Virus record (IMG/VR): IMGVR_UViG_3300032305_003086
Coordinates: 62,599 to 126,598 of that record
Length of the DNA: 64,000 bases
Reading direction: 5' to 3' (one strand)
Origin: a virus
Taxonomy: Duplodnaviria > Caudoviricetes
Positions 11,794 through 64,000 of this stretch are shown piece by piece (position 1 is the first letter of the stretch; every line of letters begins with the position of its first letter). Position numbers and translations under genes: made by a program. The notes under the pieces are model-generated. The model was not told the origin of the DNA. It was given only the letters and a program-made list of their open reading frames with translations, and searched no databases.

Positions 11794-13200
11794 ATGTCTA
11801 CCACTTTAAAAATAGAAAATTGCTATAGTCAGTTGCTATCCGATAATATGGATATGCTATGTGTGTTATACAATAATATGAGATTTAGAGAAAGAAACTA
11901 CTTCCATAGCAGATTGTACAAACAAAAATTATGGGATGGATATACCGATTTTTTTAGCAAAAAAACAGGCAAGTTTCTAACGGGATTATTGCCCGAAGTC
12001 CAAGCTGCTTTGGATCACTTAAATGAAAAATACGAAGTGGTAGATAACAGACAACTAGTCAACTTCACAGTTGATCAAATAGATGAAAATTTTCTTGATG
12101 GATTTGAATTATACGACTATCAAGTAGATCTAGCCAATGCATTAATCAAACATAAAAGAGGAGTAATATGTGCTCCAACGGCTGCGGGAAAGACGGCTAT
12201 TATGTTGTCTATTCTAAAAGCTCTACCTAAAAACTGCCCTACTTTGATTCTTGCAAATAAAAAAAGCTTAGTAGAACAAAATTATGAAGAAATGGTAAAA
12301 GCTGGCTTTGATAGTGTTGGAAGATTATACGCAAATCATAACGAACCAAATGTACTAACATGTGCAACTGTTCAATCTTTGCACAAAATGGAACCTTTAT
12401 TAGATAAAATAAAAGCCGTTGTAGTGGATGAAATACATGAAAACATGAGCAAAGAACCCAAAAAATTTCTAAATAAAATGAAAAGTTGCTCTGTTCGTGT
12501 AGCAGTTAGTGCAACTCCATTTAAATTTGGGGGAAAAGATCTTTGTCAAAAGTGGCTAGTAAAAGGCTATTTCGGACCAATATTAAAATCAAAAAGTGCA
12601 GGTGGTGTTCTCAGTACAAAACATTTGCAGGAAAGAGGAATGCTAGCCAAGTCAAGATGTACTTTTTATCCAGTACGAGAACCAGAACTAAAATATGAAA
12701 TTTATTTAGACGCAGTAACCCGTGGAATAGCAGAGAATTGGGGATTTCATGATTTGGTGAAAAAATTATCAAATAAGCTTGAGGGAAGAACTCTTATTTT
12801 AGTTGATAGAATAGCTCATGGAGATGCTTTATTTTCTATGATGCCACATTCTTTATGGGTTCAAGGAAAAGATGATCTTGAAACAAGAAAAATGGTAATT
12901 GAGAAGCTTAAATACAGCAAAGAAAAAACCATAGCAATTGCGACTCAACAAATTTTTAACGCGGGCATTAATGTTAAGACTCATAATGTCATTAACGCAG
13001 CAGGTGGTCAGGCCGATCATCATATAATTCAAAGAGTTGGAAGAGGACTTAGAACAGCAGAGGATAAAGATATATTGAACTATTATGATTTTATTTTTCA
13101 TAATAATCAATATCTTTTAAATCACAGTAGAAAAAGAATAAAAATTTTACAGAAAGAAGGACATGAAATAATAATTAAGGAAAACACTAATGATATTTGA
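11794..13200 (+). CDS. uvsW: UvsW-like SF2 helicase
   Basis: APTAAGKT, DEIH, SATP, QRVGRGLR; architecture of T4 UvsW. Confidence 0.8.
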   Translation: MSTTLKIENCYSQLLSDNMDMLCVLYNNMRFRERNYFHSRLYKQKLWDGYTDFFSKKTGKFLTGLLPEVQAALDHLNEKYEVVDNRQLVNFTVDQIDENFLDGFELYDYQVDLANALIKHKRGVICAPTAAGKTAIMLSILKALPKNCPTLILANKKSLVEQNYEEMVKAGFDSVGRLYANHNEPNVLTCATVQSLHKMEPLLDKIKAVVVDEIHENMSKEPKKFLNKMKSCSVRVAVSATPFKFGGKDLCQKWLVKGYFGPILKSKSAGGVLSTKHLQERGMLAKSRCTFYPVREPELKYEIYLDAVTRGIAENWGFHDLVKKLSNKLEGRTLILVDRIAHGDALFSMMPHSLWVQGKDDLETRKMVIEKLKYSKEKTIAIATQQIFNAGINVKTHNVINAAGGQADHHIIQRVGRGLRTAEDKDILNYYDFIFHNNQYLLNHSRKRIKILQKEGHEIIIKENTNDI

Positions 13201-14722
13201 AGAAAATTTTGAAAATAAAAAAGCAACAAAAAAAATAAAAATCAAATGTGATTTCTGTGGTGATTTATTTGAAAGAACCAAATTTGAAATACTAAGAGGT
13301 AGAAAAATAATACAAAAAGATTCTTGTTCTAATAAAAAATGCGTGTCTGAGAAGCGACAACAATCTAATATAATAAAATACGGATTCCCAAATCCATCTC
13401 AAAATAAAAATATTAGAAAAAAACAAGAAGAAACCTTGTATAAGAAATATGGAGTAAAAACCCCAGCCAAAAGCGAAATTATAAAAAGCAAAATGGCTCA
13501 AACAAATTTAATAAAATACGGAAATAAATGCTCCCTACATTCAGAAGAAAATAAAATAAAAACAAAAAATACATGGAAAAAAAAATATGGTTTTGAACAT
13601 CCATTTGCTTCTCCTATAGTCCGAAAAAAAATATATCAGACAATGGATGAAAAGTATGGAAAACACTTTACTAAAACCGAAAATTTTATTGAAAAAACAA
13701 AAAAAACTTGCATAATAAAATATGGATTCGAACATCATTCTCAAAATGAATCAACAAAGAAAAAAAGAAAACAAACAAACAAAATAAAATATGGCTGTGA
13801 ATATCCTTCTCAAAATCAAGAAATATTAAAAAAAATATTTTTATTGGGAAATCAATTTAAAAATTATGGAAAAACACAAAAAGAAATAAAAAATTACCTA
13901 GAGGCTGTGAGCAATCTAAAATTCGAATCAATCAGAATTGAAAACAAAGAAATAGACATTTTCAATGAGAAAAAAAACATAGGAATAGAATATTGCGGAC
14001 TATTTTGGCACAACGAAGATTCGCCAGATCCAAGAGATAGAAATTATCATTTTAAAAAATATCAATTATGCAAATCCAAAGAAATCAGATTAATTACAAT
14101 ATTTGAGGATGAATGGATCAATAAAAAAGATCAATGCAAAAATTATATTAAATCAGTTTTTGGAATATTTGAAAATAAAATATTTGCTAGAAAATGCATA
14201 ATAAAATCATTAGATAAAAAAATATCTAATGATTTTTATAACAAACATCACATTCAAGGAAAGCCAAGCAATACTAAAATTTCTTTTGGCATCTACTACA
14301 AAGAAGAATTGCTTGGTGTGATGAGTTTGGGGAATCATCATAGAAAATGCAATAATATCGTTTTAAATAGATTGTGTTTTAAAGAAAACTATCAAATAAT
14401 AGGCGGAGCCAGCAAATTACTTAGTGAATGTATAAATTGGTGCAAAAAAAATAAGATAAATAAAATAACAACATGGAGTGACAACAGATGGTCGCAAGGA
14501 AAAGTATATGAAAAGATGAATTTTTATTTAGAAAAGGAATTAAAACCAGATTATAGCTATGTAAACTTAAATAAAAAATATTGCAGACTATCTAAACAAT
14601 CTCAAAAAAAATCATCCACAAAGTGTCCAGCTAATACAACAGAAAAAGAATTTGCAAATAAAAATAATTTGTCAAGAATATGGGATTGTGGAAAAAAAAG
14701 ATGGATCTATAATATTTTTTAA
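13190..14722 (+). CDS. free-standing homing-endonuclease-like protein
   Basis: KYG-repeat N-terminus, PD-(D/E)xK/Vsr-like core (EIDIF...GIEYCGLFWH...IFEDEW), C-terminal GGASKL...SDNRWS...IWDCG domain. Confidence 0.7.
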   Translation: MIFEENFENKKATKKIKIKCDFCGDLFERTKFEILRGRKIIQKDSCSNKKCVSEKRQQSNIIKYGFPNPSQNKNIRKKQEETLYKKYGVKTPAKSEIIKSKMAQTNLIKYGNKCSLHSEENKIKTKNTWKKKYGFEHPFASPIVRKKIYQTMDEKYGKHFTKTENFIEKTKKTCIIKYGFEHHSQNESTKKKRKQTNKIKYGCEYPSQNQEILKKIFLLGNQFKNYGKTQKEIKNYLEAVSNLKFESIRIENKEIDIFNEKKNIGIEYCGLFWHNEDSPDPRDRNYHFKKYQLCKSKEIRLITIFEDEWINKKDQCKNYIKSVFGIFENKIFARKCIIKSLDKKISNDFYNKHHIQGKPSNTKISFGIYYKEELLGVMSLGNHHRKCNNIVLNRLCFKENYQIIGGASKLLSECINWCKKNKINKITTWSDNRWSQGKVYEKMNFYLEKELKPDYSYVNLNKKYCRLSKQSQKKSSTKCPANTTEKEFANKNNLSRIWDCGKKRWIYNIF

Positions 14723-20559: not shown

Positions 20560-20993
20560 TTTACGTCTAATTTTAGATATATGATTTTAGGCGGATTATC
20601 GTAATAAATATTTAGGTAATTGCAAGCCCAAATTTTTTGTCCCGCCTCTGTTTTTATATTTTCAGAAAAAGCATCATATATCCATCCATCAAAAAAATTA
20701 TTTTTAAGTTCAAGTCTAATGTCGCAATCTAAAAATTGTTCTTCTGAAAAGTAAAGATAAAGACCGTCTTTTGAATCTAAATTTTTAGACTTACAACCAA
20801 ATTGTATGGCCTTATCCGCTCCAGCAACTAAAGGAGATAAGGAAAATTCTGTTAGTGTAGCAGGTGCTAAAATATATTTTCCCTTGTCATTTTGAAAATA
20901 CCAATTTCCTTTTTGGTCTTTATTTATAAAAACTTTGTTGATATCGTTGTTTTCTTTTTTTTCTCCAAATATTGTGTGATTTTTATAACTCAT
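20556..20993 (-). CDS. hypothetical protein
   Basis: ORF coupled to the upstream gene; start reassigned to MSYKN. Confidence 0.55.
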   Translation of the reverse strand: MSYKNHTIFGEKKENNDINKVFINKDQKGNWYFQNDKGKYILAPATLTEFSLSPLVAGADKAIQFGCKSKNLDSKDGLYLYFSEEQFLDCDIRLELKNNFFDGWIYDAFSENIKTEAGQKIWACNYLNIYYDNPPKIIYLKLDVN

Positions 20994-21633
20994 CCTTAAA
21001 TTCCTTTTTATAAAATTCTTCAACATCAGGAGTTATTGATGGTCTATATAAATCAAAATTAAAATTTGAAATATTCTTTTTTGCAAAATCAGATAAAACT
21101 ACATAATAAGGAGATATTAATTTATTTGAAACCCATCTTTCAAAATCTTCTTTTTTTATAGAAGATTTATCTTTATTTTTCAAAAATTCTTGAGTCTTTT
21201 TTAATTCAATTTTAATTAATCTTGGACTAGTAACAAGGCCCAAATCAGAAGAGGTTTTTATTTCATTTAATTTTTTATCAAATTTTCTTTTCCATAATTT
21301 CCATCTTTTCCAAGCTTTATCACCAGTAAGTATTTGAGGTTCAATTAGAGCATGGACTTTTTCATGTTTCATTAATTTTAGCATTTGCAATTGAGCGACA
21401 ATATAAATATAATATTCTTTATCACTATCTAGTAAGCCTTTTGTTTCTCTGACTAATTTATAGCAATATTTAAAAAGAGTAGTTTTCCTAGGGTCTTTGC
21501 TTTTACTAATTTTAATATGTCTTTCATTTGGAAATTCTTTTTTACATAAATCTTGCCACATTAAACAGATTTTAAAAGCTTTTGCTTCTAAATCTGTCAT
21601 GTTATACTTCAAAATTAATTCTAGCTCATTCAT
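20983..21633 (-). CDS. hypothetical protein
   Basis: 216-aa ORF divergent from the replication block. Confidence 0.6.
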   Translation of the reverse strand: MNELELILKYNMTDLEAKAFKICLMWQDLCKKEFPNERHIKISKSKDPRKTTLFKYCYKLVRETKGLLDSDKEYYIYIVAQLQMLKLMKHEKVHALIEPQILTGDKAWKRWKLWKRKFDKKLNEIKTSSDLGLVTSPRLIKIELKKTQEFLKNKDKSSIKKEDFERWVSNKLISPYYVVLSDFAKKNISNFNFDLYRPSITPDVEEFYKKEFKDEL

Positions 21634-21638
21634 TGGTG

Positions 21639-21666
21639 TTGACTATTCTATTCGAAACGATAGAAT
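21639..21666 (+). promoter_or_regulatory. sigma70-like promoter for the putative ncRNA
   Basis: TTGACT-16-TAGAAT; inverted repeat ATTCTAT/ATAGAAT spans the spacer and -10. Confidence 0.6.
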
Positions 21667-21744
21667 TAAGCAAACGAAACAACTTTCAAGATACTATTAT
21701 ATTTTAACTTTCTAAAACTTTCTAAACGAGTAATTTTGATCTCC

Positions 21745-22175
21745 GTTGTGTTTTCCTGCACCTTGCACGGGCTAATTTATTAGCATAAAATCTCGAAAGA
21801 GAAAAAGGAACAGGATGCGTTTGGCAAACCATAGGGTTAAAAACTCCCCTAGTGTTTCTAAGCAGTAATTAATGAAAGTTAATTACATACCTTTGACGAG
21901 GTATATCAGGTGCTGTATTACTTTAAACCAAATGAATATTTTCCCGAAAGGGTTTTCCATGTAACCAGACAGTAGTTGATCTGTCATGGGGCGTAGGGTC
22001 ATGGTCAAAACGGAAATAACGTTGAAAAAATATTCAGTATTAAGTTAAAGTGAAGAAACTGAAAAGGTAGAAAAAGATCAAACAAATAGAATTGTCCCTA
22101 GAAGTTCTCTATAAGTGCGGTTCCAATATCTAACTTAAAAAGAATATTTCCTCAGGGATACGCCCCAAGTGCGCC
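21745..22175 (+). ncRNA. candidate large structured non-coding RNA (family not recognised)
   Basis: Largest ORF-free gap in the window; three GAAA-tetraloop hairpins on the + strand, several other hairpins and nested long-range helices (21987-21995/22159-22167, 22028-22035/22142-22149, 22040-22047/22131-22138). Confidence 0.65.
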
Positions 22176-22198
22176 AATAACGTTAATATTAATTAATC

Positions 22199-22480
22199 AT
22201 GAAAGAACATAGAAGAAACCTAAAAAGATTAGCTAAAAGATTTTCTATTTCGATTGATGAAGCAATTCAAAAATTTTATAATACACAAACAACAAATAAA
22301 AATATTATTTATTCTATAAAGAAAAAAAGAAATAAGGGAATTAATTCTGGTTTGGTCAAAAATAAATTAAATAAAGAAGAACTAGAAAAACTCAAAGAAA
22401 AGAAATTAAAATTTATTAGAGATTCGAAGAGAGAATCCAGATTGAAAAATATTGTAAAGCCGAAGACAAAAGTAGATTAA
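22199..22480 (+). CDS. small very basic protein
   Basis: 93 aa, Lys/Arg-rich, between the structured region and the PolA-like gene. Confidence 0.5.
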   Translation: MKEHRRNLKRLAKRFSISIDEAIQKFYNTQTTNKNIIYSIKKKRNKGINSGLVKNKLNKEELEKLKEKKLKFIRDSKRESRLKNIVKPKTKVD

Positions 22481-22507: not shown

Positions 22508-23806
22508 ATGTCAGAAATTGCTGAAATATTAGATTCGATACAGAACTCTGACGTATTTTTTCATTTTGAATCTGATTTTGTAGATTGGACTGACGATTCT
22601 TCTGTAGATTTCGCTATTCAATCCAAAGGCCAGAAATCAATAATTTCATTATGTGAGCCAAAACATATTGAAAGTTTGGCAGCAAGTTTATATTTTTATA
22701 CAAAAAATTCCAATTTGCTTACTTGGAATCTAAAAAATATCTTATCTTTTTTTAGAAAAAAATCGCAGATCAATGTAAATTTTAGCAATAAAGTTTACGA
22801 CTTGAGTGTTCTTTGTTCTTACTTTTCTTTGCCCAAAAAGAAACCTACGACTTCCAAGGAAGCCTTTTTTCTTTTTAATCACATTCGTAAGACTGATAGT
22901 TGGAAGTCTTTTGAAAAGTTTTATGATAAAGTCTATTACCCACTAATATCAAATGTAATTCCTAGCATAGAAACTAATCCATTAGTTGATTTGGCCGAGA
23001 AGAAATTTGTTTATTCTTATTACGAGATTGAAGGACAATCTAATGGTAGAATGAAGAATTTAAAAGTATTAAAAGACTGTTATCTTCCTCATTCAATGGG
23101 AGAAAAGCAAAAGAATATTTTAAGACTGCCAAGTGATGATAGTGTTTTTATGTATTATGATTTCAAACACATGGAAGTTAGTGTTTTAGAATGGATAACT
23201 AAAGATGCAAATTTATCTAAAATACTTGATTCAAATGTAGATTTATATAGGTCTATCTGGCAATCACTAACAAAATCTGAGGCCACTAAAGAGCAAAGAA
23301 AAATTTGTAAAAACATATTTTTGCCTGTTATTTTCGGTCAAGGTTCAAATTCTTTATCTAAGAGGTTGGGTATAAATGAAAAATTTGCTGAGAAACTAAT
23401 ATATAAATTAGAACAAACCTTTCCTGTTGCTTTTGATTGGGTAAAATCCCAAACAGTCGATAGCAACAATTACGCGACGGACATATTCGGTAGAAGAAGA
23501 AAATTCCAAAAAGAAGAGTTGTATAAAATTAGAAATTTTTGTATACAATCTCCATCAAATATGATTTGTTTAAGAAAACTTGTAAAACTACATGAATCCA
23601 TAAACAATAAAGCAAAAATATTTTTTCATATACACGATGGCTATGCTATTGCTTGTAAAAGAAAAGATTTAAAATTGGTATTTGAACTTGGAAAAAAAGC
23701 TTTAGAAGAAGATGACGATCTGTTTCCAAATCTTAAGCTAAAGACTTCTTGTCATTTCGGTGAACATTTGAATAATTTAAAAAATATTAAAGAGGTTATA
23801 AAATGA
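22508..23806 (+). CDS. short family A DNA polymerase-like protein
   Basis: Motif A (YDFKHMEV), motif B (RKICKNIFLPVIFG), FGRRR, NFCIQS, motif C (IHDG). Confidence 0.8.
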   Translation: MSEIAEILDSIQNSDVFFHFESDFVDWTDDSSVDFAIQSKGQKSIISLCEPKHIESLAASLYFYTKNSNLLTWNLKNILSFFRKKSQINVNFSNKVYDLSVLCSYFSLPKKKPTTSKEAFFLFNHIRKTDSWKSFEKFYDKVYYPLISNVIPSIETNPLVDLAEKKFVYSYYEIEGQSNGRMKNLKVLKDCYLPHSMGEKQKNILRLPSDDSVFMYYDFKHMEVSVLEWITKDANLSKILDSNVDLYRSIWQSLTKSEATKEQRKICKNIFLPVIFGQGSNSLSKRLGINEKFAEKLIYKLEQTFPVAFDWVKSQTVDSNNYATDIFGRRRKFQKEELYKIRNFCIQSPSNMICLRKLVKLHESINNKAKIFFHIHDGYAIACKRKDLKLVFELGKKALEEDDDLFPNLKLKTSCHFGEHLNNLKNIKEVIK

Positions 23807-24369
23807 AAGCTATACAGAACTCGTTTCCAGTTACAGAAGAAGAGTATCTTATTTTAGATAGTAAATTTGGCGAATTGTGTGAGTATCAAGCCTGGCAATT
23901 ATTGAAAAAAAATACAAGGAATAATCATACTGATAGTCAAGAAGATATAGCTCAAGATATGAGAATGGCTTTGCTTAGAGCCGCATCTTATTATAAAAGA
24001 CAATGCTATATCGAAAATGCTTTAGAACTTTGTAGAAAATATGCTAAAGATGAATTTATAAAATCCGTAGTTAAACAGTTATCTAATTTATGGAAAAACA
24101 AAACTCGTCATGGAGCTAATCGTCAAAAATTTGGGCTGTATCAAGAAAAAATGCTGGACAAACTCATTAAATGTTTAGTTCCTATAAAAGAAAGACCTCA
24201 TAAAAAAGCTTCTTTGGTCATGGATACTAAATTTATAACTTATTGTAAAGCTATAACTTGGAATGCTCAAAAAAGCCTTGGCAAGAGAATAACAAGAGAA
24301 AAATCGATTAGAACAGGAATGGTCTCAATATCAGAATTTGATTATCTAGGCGGTCAAAAAGAACAATGA
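23803..24369 (+). CDS. sigma-factor region-2-like protein
   Basis: EDIAQDMRMALLRAA...KFITYCKAITWN resembles sigma70 regions 2.2-2.4 with an insertion; no region 4. Confidence 0.45.
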   Translation: MKAIQNSFPVTEEEYLILDSKFGELCEYQAWQLLKKNTRNNHTDSQEDIAQDMRMALLRAASYYKRQCYIENALELCRKYAKDEFIKSVVKQLSNLWKNKTRHGANRQKFGLYQEKMLDKLIKCLVPIKERPHKKASLVMDTKFITYCKAITWNAQKSLGKRITREKSIRTGMVSISEFDYLGGQKEQ

Positions 24370-63359: not shown

Positions 63360-63362
63360 TTT

Positions 63363-63563
63363 ATGAGTGATGACAATTTTTATAAAGATCAAAATACTTT
63401 ATTTGAAGAATGGCTTAGGCAACCTTTTGGTGACTTGAGTTGTTTATCTGAGTTTATAGACGATTATAGTATTTTTTACATTAAGAAAGCTTTTTTGGAT
63501 GGTTATGAAGCTGGATTTAAATATAAGATGAATTTGAATTGGCAAGAACAAAATCAAAAATGA
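63363..63563 (+). CDS. hypothetical protein
   Basis: ORF in operon. Confidence 0.5.
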   Translation: MSDDNFYKDQNTLFEEWLRQPFGDLSCLSEFIDDYSIFYIKKAFLDGYEAGFKYKMNLNWQEQNQK

Positions 63564-63733
63564 ATTGCTTTAATCTTGAAAAAGTTGATGACTTATACTA
63601 CAAATTTAAATATGGATATTTTATTTTTCAAAAGGAACAGCAGAAATGGGTTTTTATTCCTTTTGAAAAATTTTTTGATGAGGATATGCTAAAAATATCC
63701 TTAGAAAATTTAGTTTTATTAAATAAAAAGTAA
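63560..63733 (+). CDS. hypothetical protein
   Basis: ATGA coupling with the previous gene. Confidence 0.45.
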   Translation: MNCFNLEKVDDLYYKFKYGYFIFQKEQQKWVFIPFEKFFDEDMLKISLENLVLLNKK

Positions 63734-63767
63734 AAAAATCGCCGTTATTGCGGACGGCGAAATTTTT
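63732..63767. terminator. bidirectional terminator candidate between convergent genes
   Basis: A-tract, TCGCCGT/ACGGCGA stem, T-tract. Confidence 0.65.
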
Positions 63768-63781
63768 ACTTTCGAGTTGTA

Positions 63782-64000
63782 TTAGATTCCTCTCATTGCT
63801 CTCATGAGATTTTGATGTGCTGAGTTCATGTGTTTTCTTTCATGATCATGATTATGAGCTTCTTCATCTTCGTAGTCTTCTTCATCTTCTAGGCCTTCTT
63901 CATCTTCGTAGTCTTCTTCATCTTCTAGGCCTTCTTCATCTTCGTAGTCTTCTTCATCTTCGTAGTCTTCTTCATCTTCTAGGCCTTCTTCATCTTCTAG
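63782..64000 (-). CDS. C-terminal part of an acidic repeat protein (partial)
   Basis: Reverse frame reads LEDEEGLEDEEDYEDEED...AHNHDHERKHMNSAHQNLMRAMRGI*. Confidence 0.7.
   Translation of the reverse strand, partial: LEDEEGLEDEEDYEDEEDYEDEEGLEDEEDYEDEEGLEDEEDYEDEEAHNHDHERKHMNSAHQNLMRAMRGI
63859..64000 (-). repeat. 18-nt coding tandem repeat, two alternating variants
   Basis: CTTCTTCATCTTCGTAGT and CTTCTTCATCTTCTAGGC, about 8 units, truncated by the window end. Confidence 0.9.

Follow-up and report, generated by a model that had tools for sequence, protein, structure and literature searches.

The window analysed here, a 64,000-nt stretch of DNA, makes up the latter half of a 126.6-kb virus record whose completeness is estimated at 25%; its relatives belong to the huge phages, are uncultured and reach 595 kb. 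Between positions 21634 and 22198 it contains an ORF-free gap of 565 nt, the longest internal one both in the window and in the 126.6-kb record. The initial annotation had called this the longest ORF-free stretch, which is true for internal gaps, as only the open end at 63360-64000 is longer. The gene to the left of the gap is conserved, lies on the minus strand and encodes 216 aa, while the replication module on the other side contains a 93-aa basic ORF and genes for a PolA-family enzyme (432 aa), a DnaB-like helicase and a gp32-like SSB. The position of the gap is called the slot in the following, and the features of the locus are:

20983-21633, minus strand: conserved 216-aa helical protein, the usual divergent neighbour of the slot in relatives
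21639-21666, plus strand: putative sigma70-type promoter for the RNA by consensus match only (-35 at 21639-44, 16 nt, -10 at 21661-66)
21673-22176, plus strand: predicted transcript, a structured and pseudoknotted RNA (probable ends) that coincides with the putative bidirectional replication origin
21673-21745, plus strand: 5' leader poor in G, in which 10 nt are repeated in tandem (21706-15, 21716-25)
21755-21814, plus strand: 5' domain restricted to one lineage (window, L069 and L072 only), containing two hairpins, 21771-84 and 21791-802 (GAAA loop)
21832-21851, plus strand: conserved hairpin with an A-rich loop (helix 1), from the alignment of relatives
21861-21914, plus strand: helix 21861-64/21911-14 with compensatory changes (helix 2), around the variable hairpins 21865-86 and 21887-904
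21957-22004, plus strand: most conserved core with helix 21957-61/22000-04, helix 21964-66/21997-99 and hairpin 21968-85, from RNAalifold and the alignment
21987-22167, plus strand: long-range pseudoknot helix 21987-95/22159-67
22012-22151, plus strand: helix 22012-18/22145-51, which encloses a long AT-rich rod as well as a purine-rich stretch
22199-22480, plus strand: small basic ORF of 93 aa, found in the close clade only, with no Pfam or PHROG match
22508-23806, plus strand: family A polymerase (PolA) of 432 aa, catalytic Asp residues kept, thumb reduced to about one helix
25917-27587, plus strand: DnaB-like helicase of the replication module

The TTGACT-16-TAGAAT promoter named in the initial annotation is present, and a promoter-like site lies 170-300 nt 5' of the core in 17/17 close-clade sequences scanned. 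Judged from this promoter, the RNA is probably ~500 nt long with its 5' end near 21673, upstream of position 21745 where the initial annotation had let it begin. No terminator was found 3' of the RNA, and the element is single-copy in the 126.6-kb record. Relatives carry short repeats resembling the tandem repeat of the leader, and these repeats are possible protein-binding sites. Iteron-like repeats directly after the promoter were also seen in the 5' part of the L048 gap (8 nt, five copies) and in the L151 gap (10 nt, two copies).

Regarding the neighbouring genes, the small basic helical ORF at 22199-22480 could encode an origin-binding or Rop-like helper. A conserved 188-aa gene without a Pfam match (23803-24369) directly follows PolA in most relatives, and positions 13190-14722 encode a 510-aa protein in which DUF7487 repeats are fused to a Mom-like acetyltransferase domain.

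RNA structure

Protein-anchored and motif searches yielded more than 200 loci, and 19 distinct close relatives were aligned. The covariation among homologs that the initial annotation had suggested looking for was found, with compensatory changes in the core domain as well as in the long-range pseudoknot across the 19 relatives; by this alignment the structure is real and conserved. In the 5' half of the RNA, 88.8% of cells pair with two-sided changes at 12 pairs, a level reached by 0/500 shuffles, and slid controls drop to 30-50% paired, both types of control being inflated by the relatedness of the aligned sequences. Within the core, 98% and 100% of cells are paired in the alignment of relatives, and RNAalifold independently recovers the core helices together with hairpin 21968-85, with two-sided changes at 5 pairs. 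The pseudoknot helix pairs in 124/133 cells with at most 5 pair types per position and a shuffle maximum of 113, and helix 22012-18/22145-51 in 94/95 cells, where the shuffle figures are optimistic as the registers of the former (partly) and the latter were chosen by fit. The purine fraction of the purine-rich stretch enclosed by the latter helix is 0.53-0.76. The region also folds better than its shuffled versions, whichever strand is taken (z -3.06 for plus, -3.34 for minus).

All seven hairpins, both long-range pairs given with coordinates and the nested-domain strings of the initial annotation occur in the sequence as described. Nevertheless, two of its long-range helices find no counterpart in the aligned relatives, namely 21818-24/21928-34 and the supposedly pseudoknotted 21758-63/21908-13, where 21911-14 pairs instead with 21861-64. 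Its helix 21987-95/22159-67 is real, but since the 5' strand sits inside the core helix 21957-66/21997-22004, which had been missed, it is a pseudoknot.

More distant phages carry a different sequence in the same gap, covariance model R1 matches the close clade only, and the primary sequence of the RNA diverges fast between clades. Distant-clade RNAs, compared by alignment alone, include one group of 14 with a similar plan, in which a loop within the enclosed domain pairs with the 3' end and A-U to G-C exchanges occur. Upon folding of the gaps, 24/24 gave negative z-scores, but so did 3/6 coding controls.

Searches of the window with Rfam 15, which includes GOLLD, ROOL, RNase P, tmRNA and group I/II introns, returned 0 matches at gathering score (best E 5.5 in the region), ribozyme families of Rfam did not match in the region, and ARAGORN found neither tmRNA nor tRNA. 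Blastn against GenBank phages and PLSDB plasmids gave chance matches only, and a search for RNA II homology among 72,556 plasmids nothing beyond a 39-nt AT-rich piece. Covariation in relatives and the lack of an Rfam match thus bear out the novel structured ncRNA proposed in the initial annotation, whereas its options of a ribozyme or a large ornate RNA of the GOLLD/ROOL kind found no support. We found no published description of the RNA; an anonymous fragment may be contained in the supplement of an IMG/VR candidate-RNA survey, whose candidates reach up to 151 nt (PMC10690425).

GTDB gave matches to two MAG contigs only, one of which (546 kb) is probably the phage itself. In L367 (CALFYV010000090.1, 546 kb), a huge phage of the group with a structured gap before PolA is apparently binned in a Bacteriovoracaceae MAG, possibly a host hint or a mis-bin.

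Two further explanations of the gap were considered. A degraded gene or recoded ORF was rejected, as no reading frame is conserved across relatives. Against a group I intron, the helix topologically matching P7 varies at most positions where a G-binding P7 is expected to be constant, only one small hairpin occupies the P4-P6 position, and there is no interrupted gene.

Occupancy of the slot

A structured gap of ~450-1000 nt precedes the PolA gene in ~57 distinct loci, and 11 loci carry a primase-type gene of 350-440 aa (AEP, Prim-Pol or TV-Pol-like) in its place. These primase-type occupants fall in several separate parts of a quick PolA tree. We regard the slot proteins of the relatives as predicted primases of the AEP, Prim-Pol and PolA-palm kinds. 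The AEP slot gene of L059 matches PF22548 (AEP-TOTE) with 34.3 bits (cut-off 27, E 2e-8), the Atlas neighbours of the AEP slot proteins being AEP-TOTE and RepB primase, and the Prim-Pol slot gene of L227 matches PF09250 with 60.7 bits (E 3e-16). For TV-Pol, the diagnostic features are a beta-hairpin Arg, two palm Asp, a fingers Lys and no nuclease domain; the slot protein in question has invariant R184, D211, K284 and H356-D357 and scores 0.97 to the PolA-palm cluster in the Atlas, the name of which is automatic. Profile searches with this protein, including those against PDB and against the small PolA, did not reach significance, and we call it TV-Pol-like on the basis of its motifs and the automatic Atlas name.

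Four complete genomes were examined. In G001 and G006 the gap is present and both primase families are missing; G008 and G011 have a TV-Pol-like gene and, within the region read, no such gap. A TV-Pol-like gene also occupies the slot in GenBank LR756511.1. As the covariance model reaches the close clade only, primase-type genomes may possibly carry a diverged RNA elsewhere. In G016 (L243:7950-10039; genome 35% complete), PolA abuts the 216-aa gene with neither RNA gap nor primase gene, and its initiator must lie elsewhere.

Unrelated genes are inserted on either side of the RNA in relatives, often between RNA and PolA (L159, L033, L111), and therefore the RNA does not serve one fixed gene as its leader. 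RNase HI adjoins the slot in L106, L168 and L192 and is absent from most genomes tested.

Some primase-type genes contain conserved DNA motifs of their own. In TV-Pol-like genes (L010:1796-2971, L085, L107, L115, L188, L195, L082, L369:2784-3947), the sequence just past motif A contains a pyrimidine-rich stretch together with a short DNA motif that is conserved; this DNA motif reads Ile-Arg-Cys-Thr/Ala, uses ATA and CGN codons in 6/6 and is missing in L127. Its resemblance to the 3' end of the RNAs is loose, and it may be an origin inside the gene. The AEP genes L059:659-1951, L145:1154-2419 and L224:1132-2448 share a 15-nt DNA motif in their otherwise variable C-terminal part, a candidate origin site. 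An apparently frameshifted DNA adenine methylase gene lies between the TV-Pol-like gene and PolA in L242:3195-4014 (G008).

Nucleotide skew

Raw GC skew was rejected as uninformative here, as it tracks gene orientation. We used T-A skew at fourfold-degenerate sites corrected for gene orientation instead, according to which the plus strand is T-poor to the left of the gap and T-rich to its right. In this genome, the cumulative skew is lowest between the genes on either side of the gap (134 genes, permutation p 0.0005 in a test that ignores autocorrelation). Among 12 other genomes, the minimum lies exactly at the slot in six, at the RNA gap in G006, G022 and G019 (weak in G019), at the TV-Pol-like gene in G008 and G011 and at the AEP gene in G015; skew maxima are located 205-245 kb from the minimum in G006, G008 and G011. 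The six remaining genomes have their minimum 8-30 kb off the slot, and in three of these the amplitude is not significant. We consider this single-gene coincidence in 7/13 genomes a stronger argument than the permutation p, and judged by skew, bidirectional replication of the phage very probably starts at this locus. Skew indicating bidirectional replication is known from ~30% of huge phage genomes (PMC7162821), and our literature search found no paper naming their origins or initiators.

Polymerase, replicase and neighbouring proteins

The PolA gene starts 330 nt downstream of the RNA, and a small PolA is encoded in 25/25 genomes tested, RNA present or not. It aligns over its full length to Klenow-type enzymes, which are ~110 residues longer; in the predicted structure, the first thumb helix runs straight into a beta-hairpin, and the aspartates of motif A and motif C are invariant. 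Shortening of the thumb reduces the processivity of Pol I (PMC10061031), and by analogy the thumbless PolA is likely a low-processivity enzyme that would suit a short first extension. Genes for DnaE were found in 14/17 genomes and DnaG-like genes in 8/17, both in RNA-type and primase-type genomes, and thus lagging-strand priming is not the task of the slot protein, nor is the small PolA the replicase. DnaE is apparently split into two pieces 3-21 kb apart in G002, G003, G004, G006, G007, G008, G009, G011, G015 and G016, and the small PolA gene at G018:C1:92461-93572 has internal stops and frame changes, pointing to a broken gene or an assembly error.

The 216-aa protein is helical, two-domained and of the size of gp59. 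Its fold matches T4 gp59 weakly (Z 4.0, rmsd 3.9, 86 residues colinear with the gp59 N-domain; Foldseek E 0.5-2), a search for a PF08993 profile match was negative, and on the structural model it is possibly a gp59-like helicase loader.

Discussion

The RNA lies outside every Rfam family and by sequence is not homologous to RNA II of ColE1, and most likely it would work like RNA II. The reading that we favour, and consider reasonably probable, is that of a ColE1 RNA II-like primer RNA which the small PolA of the phage itself extends, with helicase and DnaE taking over afterwards. It builds directly on the structure and its conservation, the position at the skew minimum, the exchange with primase-type genes, the universal small PolA and the separate replicase in relatives, from which we infer transcription, R-loop, RNase H step, priming and the order of events. 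We read the RNA as a primer precursor because a slot holding either an RNA or a primase beside a Pol I family enzyme mirrors the ColE1/ColE2 pair and because T4 primes from R-loops. ColE1 uses the RNA II primer with RNase H and Pol I (PMC5043065), ColE2 the AEP primase Rep with Pol I (PMC4538821), and T4 is a phage that primes from R-loops at its origins oriF and oriG (PMC3016281). That replacement in place is a sign of equivalent function has been argued before (PMC2579912). Of the options offered in the initial annotation, the origin-associated primer RNA is consequently the best supported, by the skew minimum at the gap and the primase-type genes that replace the RNA, its priming role being a proposal.

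In the proposed mechanism, RNA polymerase would start near 21673 and the transcript would fold during synthesis, the helices 22012/22151 and 21987/22167 closing only after the 3' end has been transcribed. These 3' helices could stabilise an RNA fold competent for priming, or they could pair with the displaced non-template DNA strand and so keep the origin open as an R-loop, two kinds of pairing that covariation cannot tell apart. As no terminator follows the RNA, its 3' end probably arises through cleavage by RNase H, for which a host enzyme must be assumed given that RNase HI is absent from most genomes. The thumbless PolA would then extend the RNA into a short D-loop, the DnaB-like helicase would be loaded, and phage DnaE and DnaG would complete both forks.

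It is unlikely, though the most probable of the rival readings, that the RNA acts at the origin without being a primer, with transcription or an R-loop opening the DNA or the RNA scaffolding initiation proteins while DnaG primes both strands. Skew minimum, promoter and purine-rich stretch fit this equally well and DnaG-like genes exist in these phages, but it leaves unexplained why primase-type genes specifically replace the RNA and why a small PolA is kept next to it in all genomes.

We regard it as improbable that the structure forms in single-stranded DNA as a recognition site for a primase or initiator, like the ssi signals of phage G4 or RSF1010, with no RNA involved. Covariation cannot separate RNA from ssDNA and the long AT-rich rods could extrude as DNA hairpins; since both strands fold better than shuffles, with similar z-scores, energy alone cannot give the strand. 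The plus-strand RNA proposed in the initial annotation is however supported by GNRA-capped hairpins, of which the 19 sequences contain 19 on the plus and 0 on the minus strand and whose loops vary among relatives within the GNRA rule, by non-canonical pairs that are nearly all plus-strand G-U wobbles, and by the sigma70 promoter kept upstream.

There is also little likelihood that the RNA forms a stable part of the thumbless PolA, serving as a thumb replacement, built-in template or guide in a telomerase-like or DRT-like ribonucleoprotein. Its usual place adjacent to this unusual polymerase, the pseudoknot and the short 5' repeats would suit such a role, whereas primase-type relatives retain the same thumbless PolA without the gap, and unrelated genes often separate RNA and PolA, as noted above. 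A cis-regulatory leader or a group I-like or self-cleaving ribozyme controlling downstream genes, its position at the origin being incidental, is very improbable: the missing terminator, the small ORF 32 nt further on and a helix order like the P3-P7-P8 pseudoknot of group I introns are outweighed by a downstream gene that is not constant, an RNA that interrupts no gene, a pseudoknot helix free to vary in sequence, unlike a G-binding P7, and no Rfam match to E 10.

Returning to the primer RNA, the predicted transcript shares with ColE1 RNA II a length of ~500-550 nt, a structured non-coding nature, a sigma70 promoter, an end at the origin (here placed by skew) and the lack of a terminator; a Pol I family enzyme is available, and its use and the later helicase loading would be further parallels. 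It differs in belonging to a huge phage, in showing no sequence similarity, and in its long-range pseudoknot and phage-encoded thumbless PolA, and the RNA-DNA hybrid is a proposal here. ColE1 replication is one-directional, and the two-directional skew observed here counts against the ColE1-like reading. No antisense RNA I equivalent was identified, the only minus-strand promoter-like site, at 21724-21696, suiting the divergent gene.

The AEP, Prim-Pol or PolA-palm proteins predicted in relatives resemble ColE2 Rep and the TV-Pol and CcPol primases (PMC4538821, PMC2579912, PMC10061031) in that they sit in the slot, at the skew minimum, beside a Pol I family enzyme; in this phage, unlike those systems, the slot holds an RNA and no protein gene. 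With T4 oriF and oriG the locus has in common the promoter, an AT-rich downstream region, a gp32-like SSB and helicase in the module and, as proposed, RNA priming. The minimal T4 origins measure ~100 bp and their R-loop formation is not sequence-specific (PMC3016281), in contrast to the 500-nt conserved fold, the dedicated small PolA and, in relatives, DnaE as replicase found here. Like GOLLD, ROOL and other large ornate phage RNAs, the RNA is large, multi-helical, pseudoknotted and GNRA-capped and stems from environmental phages; unlike these, it has no Rfam match, is tied to a replication origin and diverges quickly in primary sequence between clades.

What is new here is that an RNA is exchanged for genes of three primase-type families, and that the skew minimum maps to the slot whichever of the two occupies it. 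More tentatively, at somewhat less than even chances, huge phages may share one chromosome-like bidirectional origin with a swappable initiator, a fast-evolving pseudoknotted primer RNA in most lineages and in others an origin-specific protein primase from one of three unrelated families, either of them passing a primer to a dedicated thumbless PolA; the RNA may pair with the displaced strand or bind PolA in the thumb's place.

The locus pins the probable origin down precisely and supplies a candidate RNA initiator, together with a minimal set of enzymes suitable for reconstitution in vitro. For ColE1, the trigger of persistent hybrid formation is still termed speculative (PMC5043065), and a second, independent system with covarying 3' helices would make this question testable. 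If the primer reading is true, the RNA-primer strategy of ColE1 would extend to phage chromosomes of 500 kb with a different RNA fold, and RNA and protein primases would have been exchanged repeatedly at one locus.
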